Below are positions 1 through 56,186 of a stretch of 64,000 nt of DNA, in pieces. The notes under the pieces were generated by a model, which had not been told where the DNA came from, did no database searches, and worked only from the letters and a program-made list of their open reading frames with translations. The DNA is from Anaerolineae bacterium. GTDB taxonomy: Bacteria > Chloroflexota > Anaerolineae > Promineifilales > Promineifilaceae. How positions within the stretch are numbered: the stretch's first letter is position 1; each line of letters opens with the position of its first letter. The translations under genes and the position numbers were made by a program. The stretch lies in assembly GCA_020848035.1 (NCBI GenBank), contig JADLAX010000026.1, forward strand, positions 256,180-320,179, written 5' to 3'.

Positions 1-2106
1 GGTAATGTCGATCGGCCCCAGGTTCAGCGTAGCGTTGCCCGTTTCCAGGAACGTTAAATCGAGCGAAGCCGATTGGCCCACCTGTACGCCGCCAAAATCC
101 AGCGGCCCCGGCGCAGCCGGCTGCGAAGCAAAACCAGGCACCGGCAGCGCCTGCACGTTACAGAGGAGGTTGTAGGTCACGGATGGGTGTGCCGGGTCAT
201 TGGTGCTTAAGGTCAACGTAGCCGTGCGGCTGCCCACCGCATTGGCATTGCAGCGCAGCTCCACGTCCTGGCTGCCGCTGGCGATGTTCAGCGGGAAGGC
301 CGTCAGCACCGAAAACTCACCCGGATTGGCCCCGCCAATCGTCGGATTGCTCACCGTCAGCGTGGTGTTGCCCGTTTCAAAAATGGTAAAGATGGTGTTA
401 ATCGGCACGCCGACGCTAGTGTTGCCCAGATTGATTGGCCCCGGCTGAACCGGCGTGGAGCCGTACCCGGCCACCGCCGGATCAGCTTCAAACGCGCCGA
501 TGTCGCAAGCCAGCCCTTTGGGGCGCGGATCGCCGCGCTGGTCTTCGCCATCAACCGGGCTGTCGGCGCAGGCGACATTATCGCCCGCGTCACGCGCCGG
601 GCTGCCGCTGCCCAGGGCCATCGTCAGCAGCGAGGCAATCGCCCCGCCGTTAAACGAAGGCGGCTCCAGCAGCGGATCGGCGCTGGAGATGCCAGCGCCA
701 CAGGCCGTGCCCGGATATTGCAGATTACTGCCGAGGTTTAACGGCAGCTCGGCGGCGCAGGTGCCACCGCTGCCGCTGCTGCCCTCGGCCACGATACTGT
801 TCACCAGCTTAACCTGGTGCAGGTGGTTGTTGTCATCGTTGAGGTTGTAAATCGCCCCGCCGGAGCTGGCAATGTTGCCCGAAATCGTCACGTTTTCTAG
901 CGTGGTGATGGTATCACGCGGATCGTCGTTGCTGTACAGTGCGCCCCCCAAACCGTCATCGGCGATGTTGGCAAAAAAGGAGCTGTTGGCCAGCTCAATG
1001 GTGCTGCCCAGGTTGAAGATCGCCCCACCATTACCCGCATTGGTAAAGTCACTGGAAGCGATGTTGGCGTTGAAGGCCGTTTTAGACAGGTTGAGCGTGG
1101 CGGTGTAGGCATAGATGGCCCCGCCACGGCCGTTTTTCACCCCGCCCGAAATGTTGCCGTTAAACGAGCTGTTGCTCACGTTGACCGGAATATCCCCGGT
1201 GAGATACAGCGCCCCACCCTGGCCGCCGGGCGTCAGGTTGCCGTTAAAGGCGGTGCGCTCGATGTTGACGCTGTTATCTTCGTAGTTGTTCTCGACAAAG
1301 ATGGCCCCACCGCCATGCCCCGTTTGTGTACCTTGGGCAATGTTGCCGGAGAAAACGCTGTCGGTAATGTTCATCGGCGACGTGGTGATGAGGGCAATTG
1401 CCCCGCCCTTTTGCTCGGCAATGTTGCCCGCAAAGTTGGTCCCGGCAATGTTGAGCGACTCTTTGGCACCGCCCTGGAAGTAAATGGCCCCACCCGCCTG
1501 CGCCGCCTTATTGCCTGCAAAATTGCTGCCCAAAATGTTCAGCTCCGCGCTGGTCAAAATTGCGCCGCCGCTCACGGTGGATTCATTGCCAATGAAGGAA
1601 GTACCCACCACATTAATTTTGCCGTCGCCATTGCCCTGAATGGCCCCGGCGAAGCCGCTTTTGCCATTTTGCAGGGTCAGGTTCATCACGGTAAAACGGC
1701 CGCTGCTGGACACAATAAAAAAGTTAGTCGCCTGGTTGCCATCCAGGATGATGGGGCCAGAAATCGTTATCTCCGAATTGATGTACATCGGCTCGACAAA
1801 CGTAATCGCCCCGGACACGCTGAACGTGATCGTGTCTGCGCCGTTCCCGGCGGGGCAGTCCGCCCCGTTGTTGAGGCTGACGGCCGCATTGTTGTTGGCC
1901 GCCTCCACCGCTTCGCGCAGCGAACATTGGCCGTCGTCAATGGAAGGATCATCAATTGGTTTGTCGGTCAGGGTATTAACGGTGAGGGAACCAGCCTGTA
2001 CCGGCTGGTCAGTGAACAAAAAGAGGACGGTTAAGAGGAGAACGGCCGTTCTCACCCCCCATTTCCCCCAAAAAGGCACAACAGCACGAACGTCTTGCCA
2101 ATACAT
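1..2106 (-). CDS. Secreted CSLREA-domain / right-handed beta-helix (GGAI-repeat) protein; C-terminal part runs off the window
   Basis: Not in the ORF track because it is open to position 1. I checked every plus-strand triplet in frame 1 from 1 to 2106 and found no TTA/CTA/TCA, so 702 codons are open on the minus strand. ATG at 2106..2104 with AAGGAG 7 nt upstream. Translation: MYWQDVRAVVPFWGKWGVRTAVLLLTVLFLF, DGQCSLREAVEAANNN, then GGAIYFQ/GGAIALI/GGAIFVE/GGALYLT/GGAIYAY/GGAIFNL/GGALYSN/GGAIYNL turns and Ig-like modules. Confidence 0.8.
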   Translation of the reverse strand, partial: MYWQDVRAVVPFWGKWGVRTAVLLLTVLFLFTDQPVQAGSLTVNTLTDKPIDDPSIDDGQCSLREAVEAANNNAAVSLNNGADCPAGNGADTITFSVSGAITFVEPMYINSEITISGPIILDGNQATNFFIVSSSGRFTVMNLTLQNGKSGFAGAIQGNGDGKINVVGTSFIGNESTVSGGAILTSAELNILGSNFAGNKAAQAGGAIYFQGGAKESLNIAGTNFAGNIAEQKGGAIALITTSPMNITDSVFSGNIAQGTQTGHGGGAIFVENNYEDNSVNIERTAFNGNLTPGGQGGALYLTGDIPVNVSNSSFNGNISGGVKNGRGGAIYAYTATLNLSKTAFNANIASSDFTNAGNGGAIFNLGSTIELANSSFFANIADDGLGGALYSNDDPRDTITTLENVTISGNIASSGGAIYNLNDDNNHLHQVKLVNSIVAEGSSGSGGTCAAELPLNLGSNLQYPGTACGAGISSADPLLEPPSFNGGAIASLLTMALGSGSPARDAGDNVACADSPVDGEDQRGDPRPKGLACDIGAFEADPAVAGYGSTPVQPGPINLGNTSVGVPINTIFTIFETGNTTLTVSNPTIGGANPGEFSVLTAFPLNIASGSQDVELRCNANAVGSRTATLTLSTNDPAHPSVTYNLLCNVQALPVPGFASQPAAPGPLDFGGVQVGQSASLDLTFLETGNATLNLGPIDIT

Positions 2107-24555: not shown

Positions 24556-24861
24556 TCAGTCGTTGTCGGTACGGTATTCGGCTCTGGCCTCGGCAACGGC
24601 CGTTGCCAGCACCTCATCCTGTACTCCCTGCCGCCGCAAACTTTCCACCAATCGGGACAGCTCGGTCGCCTGATCCAGTCGCTCCAAGTCAGCCCGCAGC
24701 CCCTGCCCAATGTACGCCCGCACCAGCGGTTGGTACCCAGAAAAACCGAGCAGCGGCGCAACCCGCTTCAGCTCCTCAACCACATCTTCCGGCATCCGAA
24801 TACTCACCATCACTTTTTTGCGATTTGGCTGCAGCCTTGTCTTCAATTTATCCACGCTCAT
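24556..24861 (-). CDS. brnA: BrnA-like antitoxin
   Basis: 101 aa. Overlaps the upstream BrnT-like gene by 14 nt. MVSIRMPEDVVEELKRVA.. RHH-like segment. Confidence 0.7.
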   Translation of the reverse strand: MSVDKLKTRLQPNRKKVMVSIRMPEDVVEELKRVAPLLGFSGYQPLVRAYIGQGLRADLERLDQATELSRLVESLRRQGVQDEVLATAVAEARAEYRTDND

Positions 24862-25144
24862 ACCGTTTCCTCTCGCTGTTTGTTGCCAATCTTGCCGAGA
24901 TTAGGCGAATATTTTCGTCACGCCAGACGAAGGCAACAAATATAACCTGCCAGTTCTTAGTCATACCAAGCGCATGATGCCGCAGTTCACCCTCTTCGAG
25001 TTTGTCCTCTACTGCCATTAAAAAGGGATCGAAGAACAGTTCAACGGCCGTTCGAAAATCAAAGCCATGTTTTTTAGCATTAGCAAACGCTTTGTCAGCA
25101 TCCCATTCAAAGTTTATTCCTTGAGAATGAAATTTTACATCCAT
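24848..25144 (-). CDS. brnT: BrnT-like (DUF497) ribonuclease toxin
   Basis: FEWDADKAFANAKKHGFDFRTAVELFFDP..IRLISAR is the DUF497/BrnT pattern. Confidence 0.8.
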   Translation of the reverse strand: MDVKFHSQGINFEWDADKAFANAKKHGFDFRTAVELFFDPFLMAVEDKLEEGELRHHALGMTKNWQVIFVAFVWRDENIRLISARLATNSERKRYERG

Positions 25145-25182: not shown

Positions 25183-27222
25183 TTATTCTTCAACGATGAT
25201 AGTAGTCAATAAATAGGCATCCGTTGCGCCATCTGGGGTAGTAATGGGCAGGCGGTTGGTGGGGTTGGCCAGATCGTAGAGACCGAGCAGGAGGCGGTAG
25301 CTGCCGGGTGGCAAATCGCTGGGCAGGAGCAGGCCGTGATTATCCAGCACCACTGTGCCGGGCGGCCAGGTGGTGGTGAGGGCCAGGCCGCCGCCCGGTT
25401 CGCTGTCGCGCTGGCTGACCAGGTTACCATTTTCATCCAGCAGGTGCAGGAACACTTTGTAGCGGTTTTGGAGGGGTACGGCCGTTTCCCAAAACAGCGT
25501 CACCTCCACAATATCACCCGGTTGCAGGATTGTTTCACCCAAAGTGTAGCCATCTAGCACGATATTTTCGCCAAAGGGGAGGGAAACGGCCGTTGCCATC
25601 TCGGTGGCGGGCGCAGAGGGTACGGCGTAGGTGACAAAACGCACGTCGCCAACCCACTCGTCGGTGGCTTTGAAGGCGTGGGCGTCCAGCCAGCGCTCAA
25701 CCAGCCGTTCGGGATCGCGCTGCGCCTCGCCCCAGAAGATAGCGTAAATGCGGTTGTGCTGGGCGGCAATCTGGCTGAGGGCGGCGTCGATGTCGGCGGG
25801 ATTGGGGCGGCTGCGGCCCTCTGGCAGGGGAAAGACGTTGCCGTCGTCGGGGAAGTAGTAGGTGAACGCTTCCCACTGGTTGGCGGCGTTCAAAATGATA
25901 CCCGCATCGGGATGATCTTCGGCCAGAATGCGCTGGGCCATGGCGCGGTAATCGGCCCGGGCGTAGGCCGGATCGGCGTACATGTTTTGCAGCGATTGGA
26001 GCATGCCCCACGGCAGCACTAGCAGCAGCACGCCCGCCAGCAGGCGAAAGCCGCGCTGGTTGGTTTCCGTCAGCGCAGCCCCCAGCCAGATTGCCCAGAA
26101 CGGCACAGCGACCATCAAAAATTTGTAATATTCGCGGCCCGTCGTGCCGGTGGCATACATCATGACCAGCGGAATGAGCACGCCCAAAACGGGCAAGATG
26201 AGTTTAGACCGGGCGTACACCAACCCAATCCCCAACAAACCAGCCACCAGCCACAATAAACTCGCTTCTGGTTCAATTGTCTGGCCAAAGGTGAGGAAGT
26301 GGGCAACGGCCGTAACCAACTCCCCCACCCCCGGCCGGTTAATCGGATCACTGCCAAACTGGACCCAAAATGTGGGCAGCCAGGGCGCATAAAGCAGCAG
26401 CGTGGCCAGCATGAGGAAGGACCAATGCTTAATGGTTAATGGGAAATGGTTACTGGTTAATGGTTTGGGCAAGGATTGGATAATTTTGATGAGGACAAAC
26501 AGATTGTGGACGAGGAGGACGGCGGGGAAAAAGTAGTGCGTGTACAACCCCGCCGCCGCACACAGCACATACGCGCCACCCCACCACCATTGCCGATTAC
26601 CGCTCACCGATAACCGATTACCGATTACCGACCACCAGCGCAGCAGCAAAACCGTCGACAGCACCGCCCACAAACCCAGCAGCGCATACATTCGTGTTTC
26701 CTGGCTGTAATACACCAGCCCTGGATTGATAGCGACCAACCCCGCCGCCACCAAGCCCAATCTCTGTGCCCCTCTGTGCCGCCTCTGCGTAACTCTGTGT
26801 TCCGCTTTTTCCTGTTGCTGAAGCGGCCGTTTCGACACGCTCAACGCCCTTCCCAGTACAAACGTCAACGGCACCACCAACAACCCGGCAAACACGGACA
26901 GCGAACGCAGGCCAAATTCGCTGTCGCCCGCCAGCTTGCGCCACTGGTGCAGCAGCAGGTAGTAAAGCGGCGGATGAATGTCGCTGGCGGTGCCCTCGAT
27001 AATGAGCGGGATGGAGCGCTCGCTCAGCCGGGCGCTGTTCCCCTCATCATTCCAAAACGACTGCACTTCCAGATTATGCACCTGCAGTCCAAACGCCAGC
27101 AGCAAAATCGCCACCAGAAGATATTGCTTAGCCACAGAGGGCACAGAGAAATGAGAGATTTTGGGTTTTTTCTCTGCGATCTCCGCGTCCTCTGCGGTGA
27201 AATCTTTAGGCTTCAGGTTCAT
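25183..27222 (-). CDS. GT39/ArnT-like membrane glycosyltransferase with C-terminal soluble domain
   Basis: FWNDEGNSARLSER..DIHPPLYYLLLHQW and more than 10 TM segments. Carries in-frame simple-repeat insertions (see findings). Overlaps the upstream GH gene by 17 nt. Confidence 0.8.
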   Translation of the reverse strand: MNLKPKDFTAEDAEIAEKKPKISHFSVPSVAKQYLLVAILLLAFGLQVHNLEVQSFWNDEGNSARLSERSIPLIIEGTASDIHPPLYYLLLHQWRKLAGDSEFGLRSLSVFAGLLVVPLTFVLGRALSVSKRPLQQQEKAEHRVTQRRHRGAQRLGLVAAGLVAINPGLVYYSQETRMYALLGLWAVLSTVLLLRWWSVIGNRLSVSGNRQWWWGGAYVLCAAAGLYTHYFFPAVLLVHNLFVLIKIIQSLPKPLTSNHFPLTIKHWSFLMLATLLLYAPWLPTFWVQFGSDPINRPGVGELVTAVAHFLTFGQTIEPEASLLWLVAGLLGIGLVYARSKLILPVLGVLIPLVMMYATGTTGREYYKFLMVAVPFWAIWLGAALTETNQRGFRLLAGVLLLVLPWGMLQSLQNMYADPAYARADYRAMAQRILAEDHPDAGIILNAANQWEAFTYYFPDDGNVFPLPEGRSRPNPADIDAALSQIAAQHNRIYAIFWGEAQRDPERLVERWLDAHAFKATDEWVGDVRFVTYAVPSAPATEMATAVSLPFGENIVLDGYTLGETILQPGDIVEVTLFWETAVPLQNRYKVFLHLLDENGNLVSQRDSEPGGGLALTTTWPPGTVVLDNHGLLLPSDLPPGSYRLLLGLYDLANPTNRLPITTPDGATDAYLLTTIIVEE
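26424..26465. repeat. Six AATGGTT-type heptamers (42 nt) inside the GT39-like CDS
   Basis: AATGCTT AATGGTT AATGGGA AATGGTT ACTGGTT AATGGTT. Translated as ..LTSNHFPLTIKHW.. Confidence 0.85.
26594..26635. repeat. Six CGATTAC-type heptamers (42 nt) inside the GT39-like CDS
   Basis: CGATTAC CGCTCAC CGATAAC CGATTAC CGATTAC CGACCAC. Translated on the minus strand as ..SVIGNRLSVSGNR.. Confidence 0.85.
27133..27197. repeat. CACAGAG / CTCTGCG element forming the 5' end of the GT39-like ORF
   Basis: CACAGAGGGCACAGAGA ... TCTCTGCGATCTCCGCGTCCTCTGCGG. Related CTCTGTG decamers at 26761..26800, also inside the ORF. Confidence 0.7.
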
Positions 27223-28561
27223 GAGGGGTTAACCAGCGGAGGAGGGCGAAGAAGAGGCTGGCGAGGGCGGGAATGAAGAGATACGGCCGTATCTCCATCC
27301 AGTCATACACCCAACCAGCCTGGGGCACAGGTTTGGCCATCTGCGGCAGCGTTTCAGCCAGCGCATCGTACACGGGCTGGGGCGTAAAATCGGCATCGAG
27401 CAGGCGGAAGTAGTAAAACGATTGGTCCAGCTCCGTGTCATCTTTGCGCTTGAGGAACCAGGTGTTGATCACACCCACCCAGGGCCATTCCGCCTGCGCC
27501 CGCTCGTATGCCTCGACGGCAAAACGGGCCTGCTGCTCCGGCGTCACCCGGCCAAAGCGGGCGTCCATGCCTTCCGGCACCACATTCCAGCCCATCTCCG
27601 ATATCCAGATCGGCTTGTTGGCGTCGCCGTGGCGCACCATCACGTCACGCAAATACAAATTGTGCGGATAGTTGATCACGTTGGGCTTCAGCCGCTGGTC
27701 CAGCGCCCCGGACCACAGCCCGTACCCCTGCGCCGACATCACGTCGAAGCAGTCACCAGCCCCGGCGGCGTACATGCGCTCCAAAAAGATGAGATCGTTC
27801 AGGTTGCCGTCGTTGATGGCCACGGTGGGGGTGAGCGCCCCGGCCAACACCACAGCGTCGGGATTTACTTCCTTGATACGGCCGTACGCGTTACACAACA
27901 GCTCCGTATACTGCTCCGGGCTGACGGGCTGGTGGTTGCCCCACTCGCCGTTGCCGTTGGGCTCGTTCCACAGCTGGAAGTAGCGGATACGGCCGTTATA
28001 CCGTTCCGCCACCGCCGCCGCAAAATCGCCAAAATCGTCGTAGTTGTCCGGGGGGGCCAGCGTACCGGTCACCTCCACCGGCAGCGCACGGCTCCAGGCG
28101 GGCGGATTGCTCAGCCGGGCAATAATCTCAACATCGTACGACTCCGCCAAATCCACGATGTTGTCGTACTTCTCCCACGCCGAGCGGAACGGCTCGTGCC
28201 GCCGGTCCTCAAAATCCCCCTTGCCGTGAATCTCAATATCTTCCCAAACAAATTCCTGGCGGATGAACTGGAAGCCCGCCTGACGGGCCATTTGCAGACT
28301 CAGATCGCGCTTAACAATCTCGGCTTCCTGCTCCAAAAAGGTATTCACGCCAAACGGAGACACAGGCACAATAGTCCGTTGAGCAGAGTTTAGAGCGAGC
28401 TGGGGTTGGGGGCGTACGGCCGTATTCCACCAGTGCACCACCCCGCGCAGCTGGGCCAGCAGGGCATCTTCGCCCGTCAGTTCATACAACGAACCAACGG
28501 GCGGCCATAAAGAAATCACGAGCAACAAACCACTAGCCACTAAAATCAACTTCTTCCACAT
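27206..28561 (-). CDS. Clan GH-A glycoside hydrolase (GH5/GH39-like), membrane-anchored
   Basis: N-terminal anchor. YFQLWNEPNGNGEWG (acid/base NEP) and IWISEMGWN (nucleophile). Confidence 0.7.
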   Translation of the reverse strand: MWKKLILVASGLLLVISLWPPVGSLYELTGEDALLAQLRGVVHWWNTAVRPQPQLALNSAQRTIVPVSPFGVNTFLEQEAEIVKRDLSLQMARQAGFQFIRQEFVWEDIEIHGKGDFEDRRHEPFRSAWEKYDNIVDLAESYDVEIIARLSNPPAWSRALPVEVTGTLAPPDNYDDFGDFAAAVAERYNGRIRYFQLWNEPNGNGEWGNHQPVSPEQYTELLCNAYGRIKEVNPDAVVLAGALTPTVAINDGNLNDLIFLERMYAAGAGDCFDVMSAQGYGLWSGALDQRLKPNVINYPHNLYLRDVMVRHGDANKPIWISEMGWNVVPEGMDARFGRVTPEQQARFAVEAYERAQAEWPWVGVINTWFLKRKDDTELDQSFYYFRLLDADFTPQPVYDALAETLPQMAKPVPQAGWVYDWMEIRPYLFIPALASLFFALLRWLTPHEPEA

Positions 28562-55127: not shown

Positions 55128-55175
55128 AGGGCCGATTTTACCGCAGGAGAGGGTAATGTGGTAAAGAGGAGAAGG

Positions 55176-55246
55176 GGTGAGCGGGTGAAGGGGTGAAGGG
55201 GTGACAAGGTGACCGATAACCGTTTACCGTTTACCGAATACCGGTT
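55176..55246. repeat. Five GGTGANNN octamers followed by five ACCGNNN heptamers
   Basis: GGTGA at 55176, 55184, 55192, 55200 and 55208, then ACCGATA ACCGTTT ACCGTTT ACCGAAT ACCGGTT (55212..55246). The crotonase stop lies in the heptamers. Confidence 0.85.
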
Positions 55247-56009
55247 TTCGCTTTTCGCGGAAGGCGGCGAGAGCTTCCAGGTGATCGGGCTGGGACCACA
55301 AATCAACAAAGAGGCTGGTTTCTTGCGCGTTGGTGGCGGCGACAGCAGGCTGGCTGGCGGCATAGACGAGCTGTTTGCTGGCGGCCAGGGCATGTTGGGG
55401 CAGTTGGATGAGTGAGTGAGCCAGGGCAGTAACGGCCGTTTCTAACCCCGCCGCCTCGTCTACCACCTGCTGCACCAGCCCCATCTGCTGCGCCTCTTCC
55501 GCCGAAAATATACGCGCCGTCAGCAGCAGGTCGAGCGCCCGCGCCTGACCCAGCAGGTTGACCAGTCGTCCTGTACCGCCCCAGCCCGTGCACAGCGCAT
55601 TGCGTACCTGAGCAAAACAAAAGCGGGCATGACGGGTCGCCACACGCAGGTCGCAGGCGGTCAAAATCTCGCAGCCGCCGCCAAACGCATCCCCATTTAC
55701 AGCGGCAATAACGGGAATGGGCAGCCGGGTCAGCTGCCCCAGCGCCTCCCGCATCACCCGGTTCAACCGTTCGCCCGCCTCCCGTTCTGGATGCTGGCTC
55801 AGCTCCTTCAAGTCGCCGCCAGAAACAAACGCTTTATCGCCCGTACCGCTGATGATAAGAACGCGAACGGCCGAATCCGCCGCCACTTGCGCCACCGCCT
55901 CAGCAAACGCCGCCTGCGCCGTCCAATTCAACGCATTACGCGCCTCCGGTCGGTTCACTCGCAGCGTGGCAATTCCTTCTTGTTGTGTCAGAATGATTTC
56001 TTGGTTCAT
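55224..56009 (-). CDS. Enoyl-CoA hydratase/isomerase (crotonase) family protein
   Basis: MNQEIILTQQEGIATLRVNRPEARNALN..ISGTGDKAFVSGGDLKE. The track start 56117 adds an N-extension encoded by simple repeats. The stop codon lies inside a heptamer array. Confidence 0.85.
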   Translation of the reverse strand: MNQEIILTQQEGIATLRVNRPEARNALNWTAQAAFAEAVAQVAADSAVRVLIISGTGDKAFVSGGDLKELSQHPEREAGERLNRVMREALGQLTRLPIPVIAAVNGDAFGGGCEILTACDLRVATRHARFCFAQVRNALCTGWGGTGRLVNLLGQARALDLLLTARIFSAEEAQQMGLVQQVVDEAAGLETAVTALAHSLIQLPQHALAASKQLVYAASQPAVAATNAQETSLFVDLWSQPDHLEALAAFREKRKPVFGKR

Positions 56010-56133
56010 GGGGTAAGTGTACGAGGATGGGGGGGAAGTGGAAAGTAAAAAGTGGGAAGTGAGCAGGTGGCAGGTTTGCAAGTAGCAGGTGGCAAGTGGC
56101 ACGAGGCAGGATTGCAAAGCATCTAACGAAACT

Positions 56134-56186
56134 TCACCTTGTCACCTTGTCACCCCCTCACCCTGTCACCCCATCACCCCATCACC
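56134..56186. repeat. Seven TCACCNNN octamers (inverse orientation of the 55176 array)
   Basis: TCACC at 56134, 56142, 56150, 56158, 56166, 56174 and 56182. The LacI stop codon lies in the array. Confidence 0.85.

Follow-up and report, generated by a model that had tools for sequence, protein, structure and literature searches.

In-frame heptamer arrays in the loops of a predicted GT-C glycosyltransferase from a repeat-rich Chloroflexota genome

Introduction

Can short tandem repeats with a seven-nucleotide unit be carried inside the gene of a conserved membrane enzyme, and what decides which of them are kept? This question is raised by an open reading frame (ORF) on the minus strand of a 64,000-nucleotide (nt) stretch of DNA, hereafter the window (positions 256,180 to 320,179 of contig JADLAX010000026.1, assembly GCA_020848035.1), whose host is a wastewater-type member of the Chloroflexota with an Ardenticatenaceae genome related to Candidatus Leptofilum. 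A first-pass annotation had read the ORF as a GT39-like glycosyltransferase containing two 42-nt blocks of six heptamers each, a decamer block and a repeat-derived N-terminus, and had proposed that only frame-neutral expansions survive in loops between transmembrane (TM) helices. In our view, the gene very probably encodes a working GT-C enzyme in which repeats resembling the STRR sequences (short tandemly repeated repetitive DNA) of cyanobacteria are tolerated and translated in permissive loops as passenger peptide. The idea that such arrays come in multiples of three has to be replaced as a generalisation by a filter that acts on stop codons and reading frame.

A predicted glycosyltransferase masked by its own repeats

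The ORF is intact, and its 679 codons (Table 1) correspond to a protein of 679 amino acids (aa). The AlphaFold2 model, for which 116 homologues served as input, has a predicted local distance difference test score (pLDDT) of 87.8 and a predicted template modelling score (pTM) of 0.85, and it consists of 11 predicted TM helices followed, from residue 417, by an extracytoplasmic C-terminal domain with an alpha/beta and a beta-sandwich part. Its best structural matches in Foldseek are GT-C enzymes, namely ArnT (5ezm, E 7.8e-7), Pmt4, PglB, AftA and Pmt1-Pmt2; a profile of the 116 homologues found no relative by sequence in the PDB. Ardenticatenaceae, Candidatus Leptofilum and other Anaerolineae are the sources of the 2,125 homologues, several of which are recorded under the name "glycosyltransferase family 39" or mannosyltransferase. 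Members of the GT-C family transfer a polyprenyl-phosphate-linked sugar to an extracytoplasmic acceptor. The residues W57-N58-D59-E60-G61-N62 of a WNDEGNS motif are invariant in the 116 homologues, and D59-E60, which is located between TM1 (29-48) and TM2 (102-128) in the model, is presumed to be the catalytic acidic pair of GT-C enzymes.

The native protein gave no usable match in Pfam or NCBIfam: PMT_2 was not found, PMT reached only 13 bits (cut-off 22.7; E = 0.074), and Agl23 scored 31 bits against a cut-off of 126. When the four repeat-derived segments (residues 1-29, 129-150, 198-207, and 252-261) were excised in silico, PMT_2 (PF13231) was matched at positions 2-158 of its 160-position profile with 35.8 bits, above the cut-off of 26.1, and PMT (PF02366) reached 29.4 bits, also above its cut-off. 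Because the threshold is passed only after excision, the family assignment is right and it is the repeats that mask it; the repeat-poor homologues P0067, P0086 and P0099 match Pfam natively. Thus, with a fold like those of ArnT and Pmt4 and this score for PF13231, the GT39-like label of the first-pass annotation was well chosen. As judged from the sequence and its model, the product would be a GT-C enzyme of the PMT_2/PMT type, GT39/GT83-like. With about 70 residues of repeat-derived peptide, an enzyme that is plainly of the GT-C type no longer passes any Pfam threshold. Similar masking may affect many "hypothetical proteins" of repeat-rich Chloroflexota, which would be recovered if periodic segments were trimmed ahead of the profile search.

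In-frame arrays with cured stop codons

Arrays were called with Tandem Repeats Finder (TRF). At 26424-26465, it reports the unit AATGGTT (period 7, 6.0 copies, 80% matches, score 56), at 26589-26631 the unit ATTACCG (period 7, 6.1 copies, 83%, score 58), at 26762-26787 an array of period 10 with 2.5 copies, and at 27171-27196 one of period 9 with 2.9 copies. The two six-heptamer blocks are therefore real, and their translations are as had been read: the frame of the ORF renders the AATGGTT, ATTACCG and period-10 arrays as PLTSNHFPLTIKHW, SVIGNRLSVSGNR and EHRVTQRRHRGAQR, respectively, and it predicts tryptic peptides that span the arrays (e.g., LSVSGNR, PLTSNHFPLTIK, and DFTAEDAEIAEK). The supposed CTCTGTG decamer block is in frame as well, but TRF counts no more than 2.5 copies in it, and a more fitting description is a set of four (C/G)(A/C)CAGAG cores at intervals of about 10-11 nt; the peptide that had been quoted for it, QQQEKAEHRVTQRRHRGAQ, extends about 20 nt too far, as 26761-26802 encodes E141-R154 only. 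Such arrays are far beyond chance. The real 386-kb contig contains 87 period-7 arrays, 13 of them with a score of at least 50, while six shuffled versions of it contain 3-9 each and none with such a score.

What the earlier account of the heptamers overlooked is that TAA is part of the units of both loop B and loop C. If the (TCGGTAA)n and (CCATTAA)n arrays were perfect, an in-frame TAA would consequently recur every 21 nt, and translation would end there. The gene avoids such stops only because every third unit has been changed; for instance, 14 of the 20 seventh codons of loop B at ten loci are one substitution away from TAA (TTA, TAT, CAA, AAA). The true coding unit is a 21-nt block of seven codons, the last of which is a cured stop, and the array at 26424-26465 accordingly shows 89% identity when called at period 21 (1.9 copies), as opposed to 80% at period 7. 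The curing of stops thus makes a 21-nt coding repeat out of a 7-nt one, and length changes are accordingly seen mostly in 21-nt steps, each of seven residues.

Table 1. Features of the glycosyltransferase gene, its upstream neighbour and the PF05635 loci. Positions are those of the window unless a contig is named.
Feature	Position	Strand	Evidence
Predicted membrane glycosyltransferase, GT-C fold, PMT_2/GT39-like	25183..27222	-	ORF, AlphaFold2 model, Foldseek, Pfam after excision, homologues
D59-E60 of WNDEGNS, in the predicted first extracytoplasmic loop	27043..27048	-	Homologue alignment, AlphaFold2 model
Loop A (residues 125-158, TM2-TM3), with CACAGAG-type array 26761-26802 read as EHRVTQRRHRGAQR	26749..26850	-	TRF, period 10
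Loop B array (TM4-TM5): six TCGGTAA-type heptamers as two 21-nt blocks, SVIGNRL SVSGNRQ	26589..26636	-	TRF
Loop C array (TM6-TM7): six CCATTAA-type heptamers as two 21-nt blocks, PLTSNHF PLTIKHW	26422..26465	-	TRF
Repeat-derived N-terminal tail, codons 1-30, probably cytoplasmic	27133..27222	-	Conserved ATG, open frame
Hairpin: three 9-nt GCAGAG-type units against three CTCTGTG/CTCTC-type units, A-rich 12-nt loop	27132..27197	-	Folding, relatives
GH5-like (Cellulase, PF00150) membrane-anchored gene, upstream and co-directional	27206..28561	-	ORF, Pfam
PF05635 loci L012-L017	C32:34416-34977, C86:20002-20591, C54:141326-141786, C77:131092-131708, C66:39354-39900, C11:~640-1199		

Positions of the arrays in the membrane domain

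The helices of the model span residues 29-48, 102-128, 141-164, 174-201, 210-226, 233-250, and 260-288, with four more beyond. The stretches of low pLDDT between them (129-140, 202-209, and 251-259) are the sites of the three internal arrays, and these loops, after TM2, TM4 and TM6, are the only low-confidence stretches of the membrane domain (mean pLDDT of loop A, 60-75). The model thus agrees with the proposal that the loops connecting TM helices are where the arrays are placed, and distant homologues have no arrays there or different ones. In the model, TM3 (EHRVTQRR...) and TM7 (FPLTIKHW) are prolonged by parts of the arrays, the second block of loop C forming the beginning of the TM7 helix (260-288).

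Since the TM helices number 11, the acidic motif belongs to the first outer loop, and lysine and arginine are concentrated in the even-numbered loops (the odd-numbered ones being poor in both), the three array loops and the N-terminal tail probably face the cytoplasm, opposite the loop of D59-E60. The case points to the even-numbered loops and the N-terminal tail as structurally permissive parts of a GT-C enzyme, useful as sites for tags or fusions.

Variation among orthologues

Relatives at 50-62% identity have loops A, B and C of 11-16, 9-12 and 7-20 residues, respectively; some of them show no periodicity in the loops, and others carry different repeat peptides at these sites (such as IHNSQFTIHN, GDWRLEI, WQLTIDHW, DFGFRTTD). 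In the clade at 69% identity or more, by comparison, repeat peptides are found in each of the three loops of every sequence, but the lengths differ: 16 sequences have a loop B of 19 aa and 9 have one of 26 aa, and loop C measures 20 aa in 22 sequences, with 27 and 34 aa in some others. The term "insertion", which had been applied to the arrays, is appropriate in a relative sense only: loop A, at 34 aa, exceeds the 11-16 aa of repeat-free relatives, but loop C, at 20 aa, has the same length as in repeat-free relatives at about 60% identity.

In the DNA of nine relatives, loop B consists of 6 or 9 heptamers, always in the same register, and the type of unit is homogenised in each lineage (TCGGTAA here, TCAGTAA in L002, L004, and L007), which is a signature of array turnover rather than of independent point mutation. 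In the other loops of these relatives, we found units of a GCAAAGG 8-mer type instead (loop A) and of the CATTAAC or AATTCAC types (loop C). When the loops were masked for building the tree, at least 15 length changes were required for loop B, at least 11 for loop C and at least 17 for loop A, and loop B switched between 19 and 26 aa at least seven times. Given that the nearest relatives all have nine units in loop B, the six-unit state of the gene in the window looks like a recent loss of 21 nt.

Alleles may also be exchanged in parts. Loop A (34 aa) and the N-terminal tail of the window gene (26749-27222) are nearly identical to those of Candidatus Leptofilum proximum (P0007/L005), whereas P0003 (94%), the nearest relative by the remaining protein, has a different loop A and a different N-terminus, which suggests mosaic alleles produced by recombination.

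Heptamer families across the genome

The wider survey covered the 7.65-Mb assembly, 84% of which is coding, with coding sequences (CDSs) taken from a simple codon-usage gene finder. Period 7 is the commonest period, with 1,535 arrays, and the leading units are AAACGTG (319 arrays), GGAGATT (263), AAAAGTG (149), ACCGATT (80) and AACCATT (36); the loop B array belongs to the ACCGATT family and the loop C array to the AACCATT family. As to location, 784 arrays are intergenic, 299 lie across gene ends and 277 in CDS interiors. About half of all arrays (758) are arranged as inverted pairs, the median gap being about 9 nt, and 44 hairpins, nearly all of GGAGATT, lie deep inside predicted CDSs. The genome thus displays what defines STRR-type sequences, that is, dispersed and recurring 7-nt units that are mostly intergenic and often arranged as inverted pairs.

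Access to coding sequence depends on the family. GGAGATT, which is free of stops on both strands, has 34% of its arrays inside CDSs, whereas AAACGTG, which contains TGA, has only one of its 319 arrays there (0.3%). Genome-wide, the filter acts on stop codons rather than on copy number in threes: stop-free families enter CDSs freely, and stop-bearing families persist only with each in-frame stop cured.

Many other proteins have translated repeat peptides (QSPISNL, GDWRLEI, SVNGERL, LPITDY, PLTINH, QWLMVNG), which often consist of both arms of a hairpin read in frame (C74:58226-58308, C90:135015-135114, C61:75127-75207). Hairpin arms in CDSs have four units in 68 of 86 cases; those in intergenic regions have three units in 192 of 447 and four in 172 of 447. 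Within the window, inverted 8-mer arrays of the GGTGAAGG and TCACCCTG types are found at 55160-55212 and 56134-56186, where they flank an ordinary-looking ORF of the crotonase/enoyl-CoA hydratase type (55224-56117, minus strand).

A probable working enzyme with passenger peptides

Taken together, these results are best accounted for as follows. In a genome saturated with STRR-like short tandem repeats, members of the dispersed families occupy four permissive sites of the gene, namely the junction with the upstream GH5-like gene, which is also the N-terminal tail, and the loops after TM2, TM4 and TM6. There, they would be transcribed and translated as a passenger peptide, part of which may now belong to TM3 and TM7 as cytoplasmic extensions of these helices. 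Arrays would turn over quickly through slipped-strand mispairing, gene conversion or recombination, and selection would keep only those alleles that are in frame and free of stops. The arrays, their families, their places in the loops, the variation among orthologues and the cured stops are observed, whereas the slippage, the neutrality of the peptide, the cytoplasmic orientation and the translation from the ATG at 27222 are points that we infer.

Several observations weigh against this interpretation or restrict it. Among CDS arrays, the numbers of TRF units leave remainders of 0, 1 and 2 on division by three in 65, 115 and 97 cases, so that multiples of three are not enriched, and among solo arrays of at least five units they account for 11 of 32 in CDSs and 22 of 83 in intergenic regions (p = 0.27). 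Periodicity at lag 21 did not differ significantly from that at lag 7, and only the comparison of lag 21 with lag 14 (p = 0.003, n = 28) gave a weak 21-nt signal. Frame-neutral expansion, as had been suggested, is thus borne out in this gene, where loop B has 6 or 9 units and repeatedly switches between its two lengths, but it does not extend to the genome. Moreover, several lengths of loop C differ by amounts that are not multiples of 7 aa (25, 28, 29, and 39 aa), from which it follows that whole-unit slippage is one process among others. The loop C peptide is also about as conserved as the remaining protein in the clade at 69% identity or more, and this could mean that it is no longer neutral. 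Finally, the sidedness of the loops is deduced from helix counting and the positive-inside rule.

The 5′ end and the possibility of a selected function

The gene overlaps its upstream neighbour, a predicted GH5-like gene whose stop codon lies 14-17 nt inside the glycosyltransferase ORF, so that the ATG of the latter overlaps the end of the former; the same gene pair is present in relatives. Directly downstream of the glycosyltransferase gene, at 24556-25144 of the window, there is a BrnT toxin paired with a CopG-BrnA-like antitoxin.

Codons 1-30 read MNLKPKDFTAEDAEIAEKKPKISHFSVPSV, and the N-terminal repeat peptide is FTAEDAEIAEKK...SHFSVPSV. The inverted repeat that had been noticed in this region is real, and it folds as a sense RNA hairpin of -33.6 kcal/mol (z = -5.9, with none of 200 shuffles as good), as against -29.8 kcal/mol (z = -2.6) on the antisense strand; its unit, however, has 9 nt rather than the 7 proposed. 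Since the tail is built from this hairpin, its description as a repeat-derived N-terminus was accurate. The tail is probably translated from the ATG at 27222, because this codon is conserved, the frame is open in nine of nine loci, and indels among them occur in threes (3, 6 and 9 nt, hence not only in multiples of the 9-nt unit). One gene caller placed the start at a GTG at 27135, which would give a 650-aa version, but this is less likely: such a start would fall within the stem of the hairpin, and the ATG has been conserved while the indels keep the frame. In alleles of the same species (same 90% protein cluster), the tail is absent and a TTG start lies within a GGAGATT array, giving the N-terminus MEIRTRWRW; these alleles also hold a different loop A array. 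The tail is thus dispensable, given that alleles of one cluster can have an unrelated junction array and a short N-terminus in its place. In one such junction array (L010:1488-1510), the repeat includes both the upstream stop (TAG) and the TTG start of the glycosyltransferase gene, with a GGAG some 8 nt ahead of the start, where a Shine-Dalgarno sequence would be placed. It was also considered whether the two heptamer arrays inside the gene make up opposite arms of a single hairpin; this was discarded, as they are not complementary to each other.

These data bear on the alternative that the repeats have a selected function, the hairpin tuning mRNA stability or the coupling of the GH5-like and glycosyltransferase genes, and the basic loops assisting a positive-inside topology or the binding of a partner. 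The greater stability of the hairpin on the sense strand, which is due to G-U pairs, would speak for such a role, as would its retention in seven of nine relatives, where two pairs have changed from GC to AU on both sides, the richness of loop A in lysine and arginine, and the good conservation of the loop C peptide in the clade. The compensated pairs, however, come from one clade and may represent a single event, one arm of the hairpin has been lost in L006, and relatives at 50-60% identity lack the segments. Alleles of the same 90% cluster exchange the hairpin for a GGAGATT array, with a short N-terminus and a different loop A array. We therefore regard a selected function as rather unlikely, and passenger repeats in a working enzyme as the better account of the same features.

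Mobile elements and phase variation

According to a second alternative, the arrays are remnants of insertions bounded by tandem arrays, similar to MITEs (miniature transposable elements with inverted repeats), which would have struck the same tolerant loops repeatedly in different lineages. A few heptamers do recur at tens to hundreds of loci, lineages do differ in the repeat family that occupies the identical three loops, and 44 hairpin elements are found inside CDSs. A candidate for an autonomous form can even be named: all six PF05635 genes of the genome (Table 1) are bracketed by a tandem array upstream and its inverted complement downstream, each with a single family and its own 7-, 8- or 14-nt unit, while only 48 of 5,766 predicted genes are bracketed in this way by a strict criterion. 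PF05635 is the 23S rRNA intervening-sequence protein, a four-helix bundle. On this reading, which we consider improbable, the arrays would be non-autonomous copies of an undescribed element whose full form is a small PF05635 gene between inverted tandem arrays, and the loop and 5′ junction arrays would be scars of repeated lineage-specific insertions instead of products of local slippage. PF05635 has no known transposase or other mobility function, the arrays of loops B and C are single arms and not hairpins, and neither target-site duplications nor the ends of an element can be defined. Furthermore, the 6 or 9 units in register and their homogenisation are what local slippage and conversion would produce. 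An origin of the arrays in mobile elements is, in short, improbable.

The weakest alternative is a contingency locus, in which slippage of heptamers would shift the frame and switch a surface-glycan transferase off and on as the tetranucleotide repeats of Haemophilus do in lipopolysaccharide (LPS) genes; a unit that is not a multiple of three within a gene of the classic class of switch targets, frequent copy-number change on the tree, and one natural allele (L019/L020) with a frameshift that splits it where loop A begins would be in keeping with it, but it is very improbable, as the units are just 80-83% identical and slippage is reduced by this imperfection, translation of a perfect array would stop at its in-frame TAA, the arrays are in frame at all ten distinct loci with DNA across them (with differences in loop B of 21 nt only), and the split in L019/L020 is due to one A lost from an A5 run and not to a heptamer.

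For the count of loci, DNA was available for 11, L019 and L020 being the same and counted once, and L018, with a contig end at loop C, being left out. The split allele (L019/L020:2142-4099), which is divided into ORFs of 122 and 532 aa and has the identical sequence in two assemblies, could be a pseudogene, an enzyme made of two pieces, or an artefact of assembly. Three proteins were examined as possible phase-off alleles and rejected: the ends of P0090 and P0065 are contig breaks or short contigs at the loop C array, and P0033 is a genuine split that results from the loss of 1 nt in an A5 run. Among the assembled alleles compared, phase variation is not supported.

Comparison with known repeat systems

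Our literature searches on heptamer repeats found no paper that describes them in Chloroflexota, but four systems from other bacteria offer useful comparisons. Simple-sequence contingency loci, such as the tetranucleotide repeats in LPS glycosyltransferase genes of Haemophilus influenzae (PMC2651432), likewise have a tandem unit that is not a multiple of three inside a glycosyltransferase gene. There, however, the repeats are perfect and long and occur both in frame and out of frame among strains, whereas the arrays described here are imperfect, have their stops cured, and are in frame at all loci compared, which does not fit the pattern of a phase-variable tract.

The Rickettsia palindromic elements (RPEs), which are inserted in frame in protein-coding genes, at least as outlined in one account (PMC10969869), provide a second parallel. 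In both cases, repeat DNA of an intergenic type is found in frame within conserved genes at sites compatible with the fold (translation being an inference in ours), and dozens of cases occur per genome, if we count the hairpins in CDSs. RPEs are palindromes of about 100-150 bp with a consensus for each family, while the arrays of loops B and C consist of one 42-nt arm each and have no defined ends. The only palindromic part here is the 66-nt hairpin at the 5′ end, and the arrays are not discrete elements in the sense of the RPEs.

A third parallel is offered by the TAACTGA heptamer direct repeats of marine Beggiatoaceae (PMC4679880). Those heptamers also bear stops, with TAACTGA having one in each of the three frames of one orientation, and they are mostly intergenic and near start codons, with a minority in ORFs, mainly at the protein periphery. 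Where they are read as protein, they too give a peptide with a periodicity of seven residues (LSVISYQ in Beggiatoaceae, SVIGNRL here). In contrast to the single unit family of Beggiatoaceae, many families are present in our genome. In addition, repeats in the forward orientation are restricted to the ends of ORFs in Beggiatoaceae because of their stops, while the stop-bearing orientation is found here in the middle of an enzyme, with every third unit mutated.

The fourth system is that of the cyanobacterial STRR sequences and the heptamers over-represented in Xanthomonas and Nostoc (PMC4692102), together with the report of an STRR inside the gene for RNase P RNA (Vioque 1997, as cited in PMC4748335). 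As in those cases, 7-nt units belonging to a few families are found at hundreds of loci, mostly in intergenic regions and often as inverted pairs able to form stem-loops; the copy number differs among relatives; and arrays are sometimes located within a functional gene at a tolerant site. What distinguishes the present case is the host, a member of the Chloroflexota, the units themselves (AAACGTG, GGAGATT, AAAAGTG, ACCGATT, and AACCATT), and the fact that the arrays read as protein in three loops of a single enzyme. The gene is thus a tidy example of a known tolerance for repeats, which involves no new mechanism and extends what has been described for STRR sequences to the loops of a predicted membrane glycosyltransferase.

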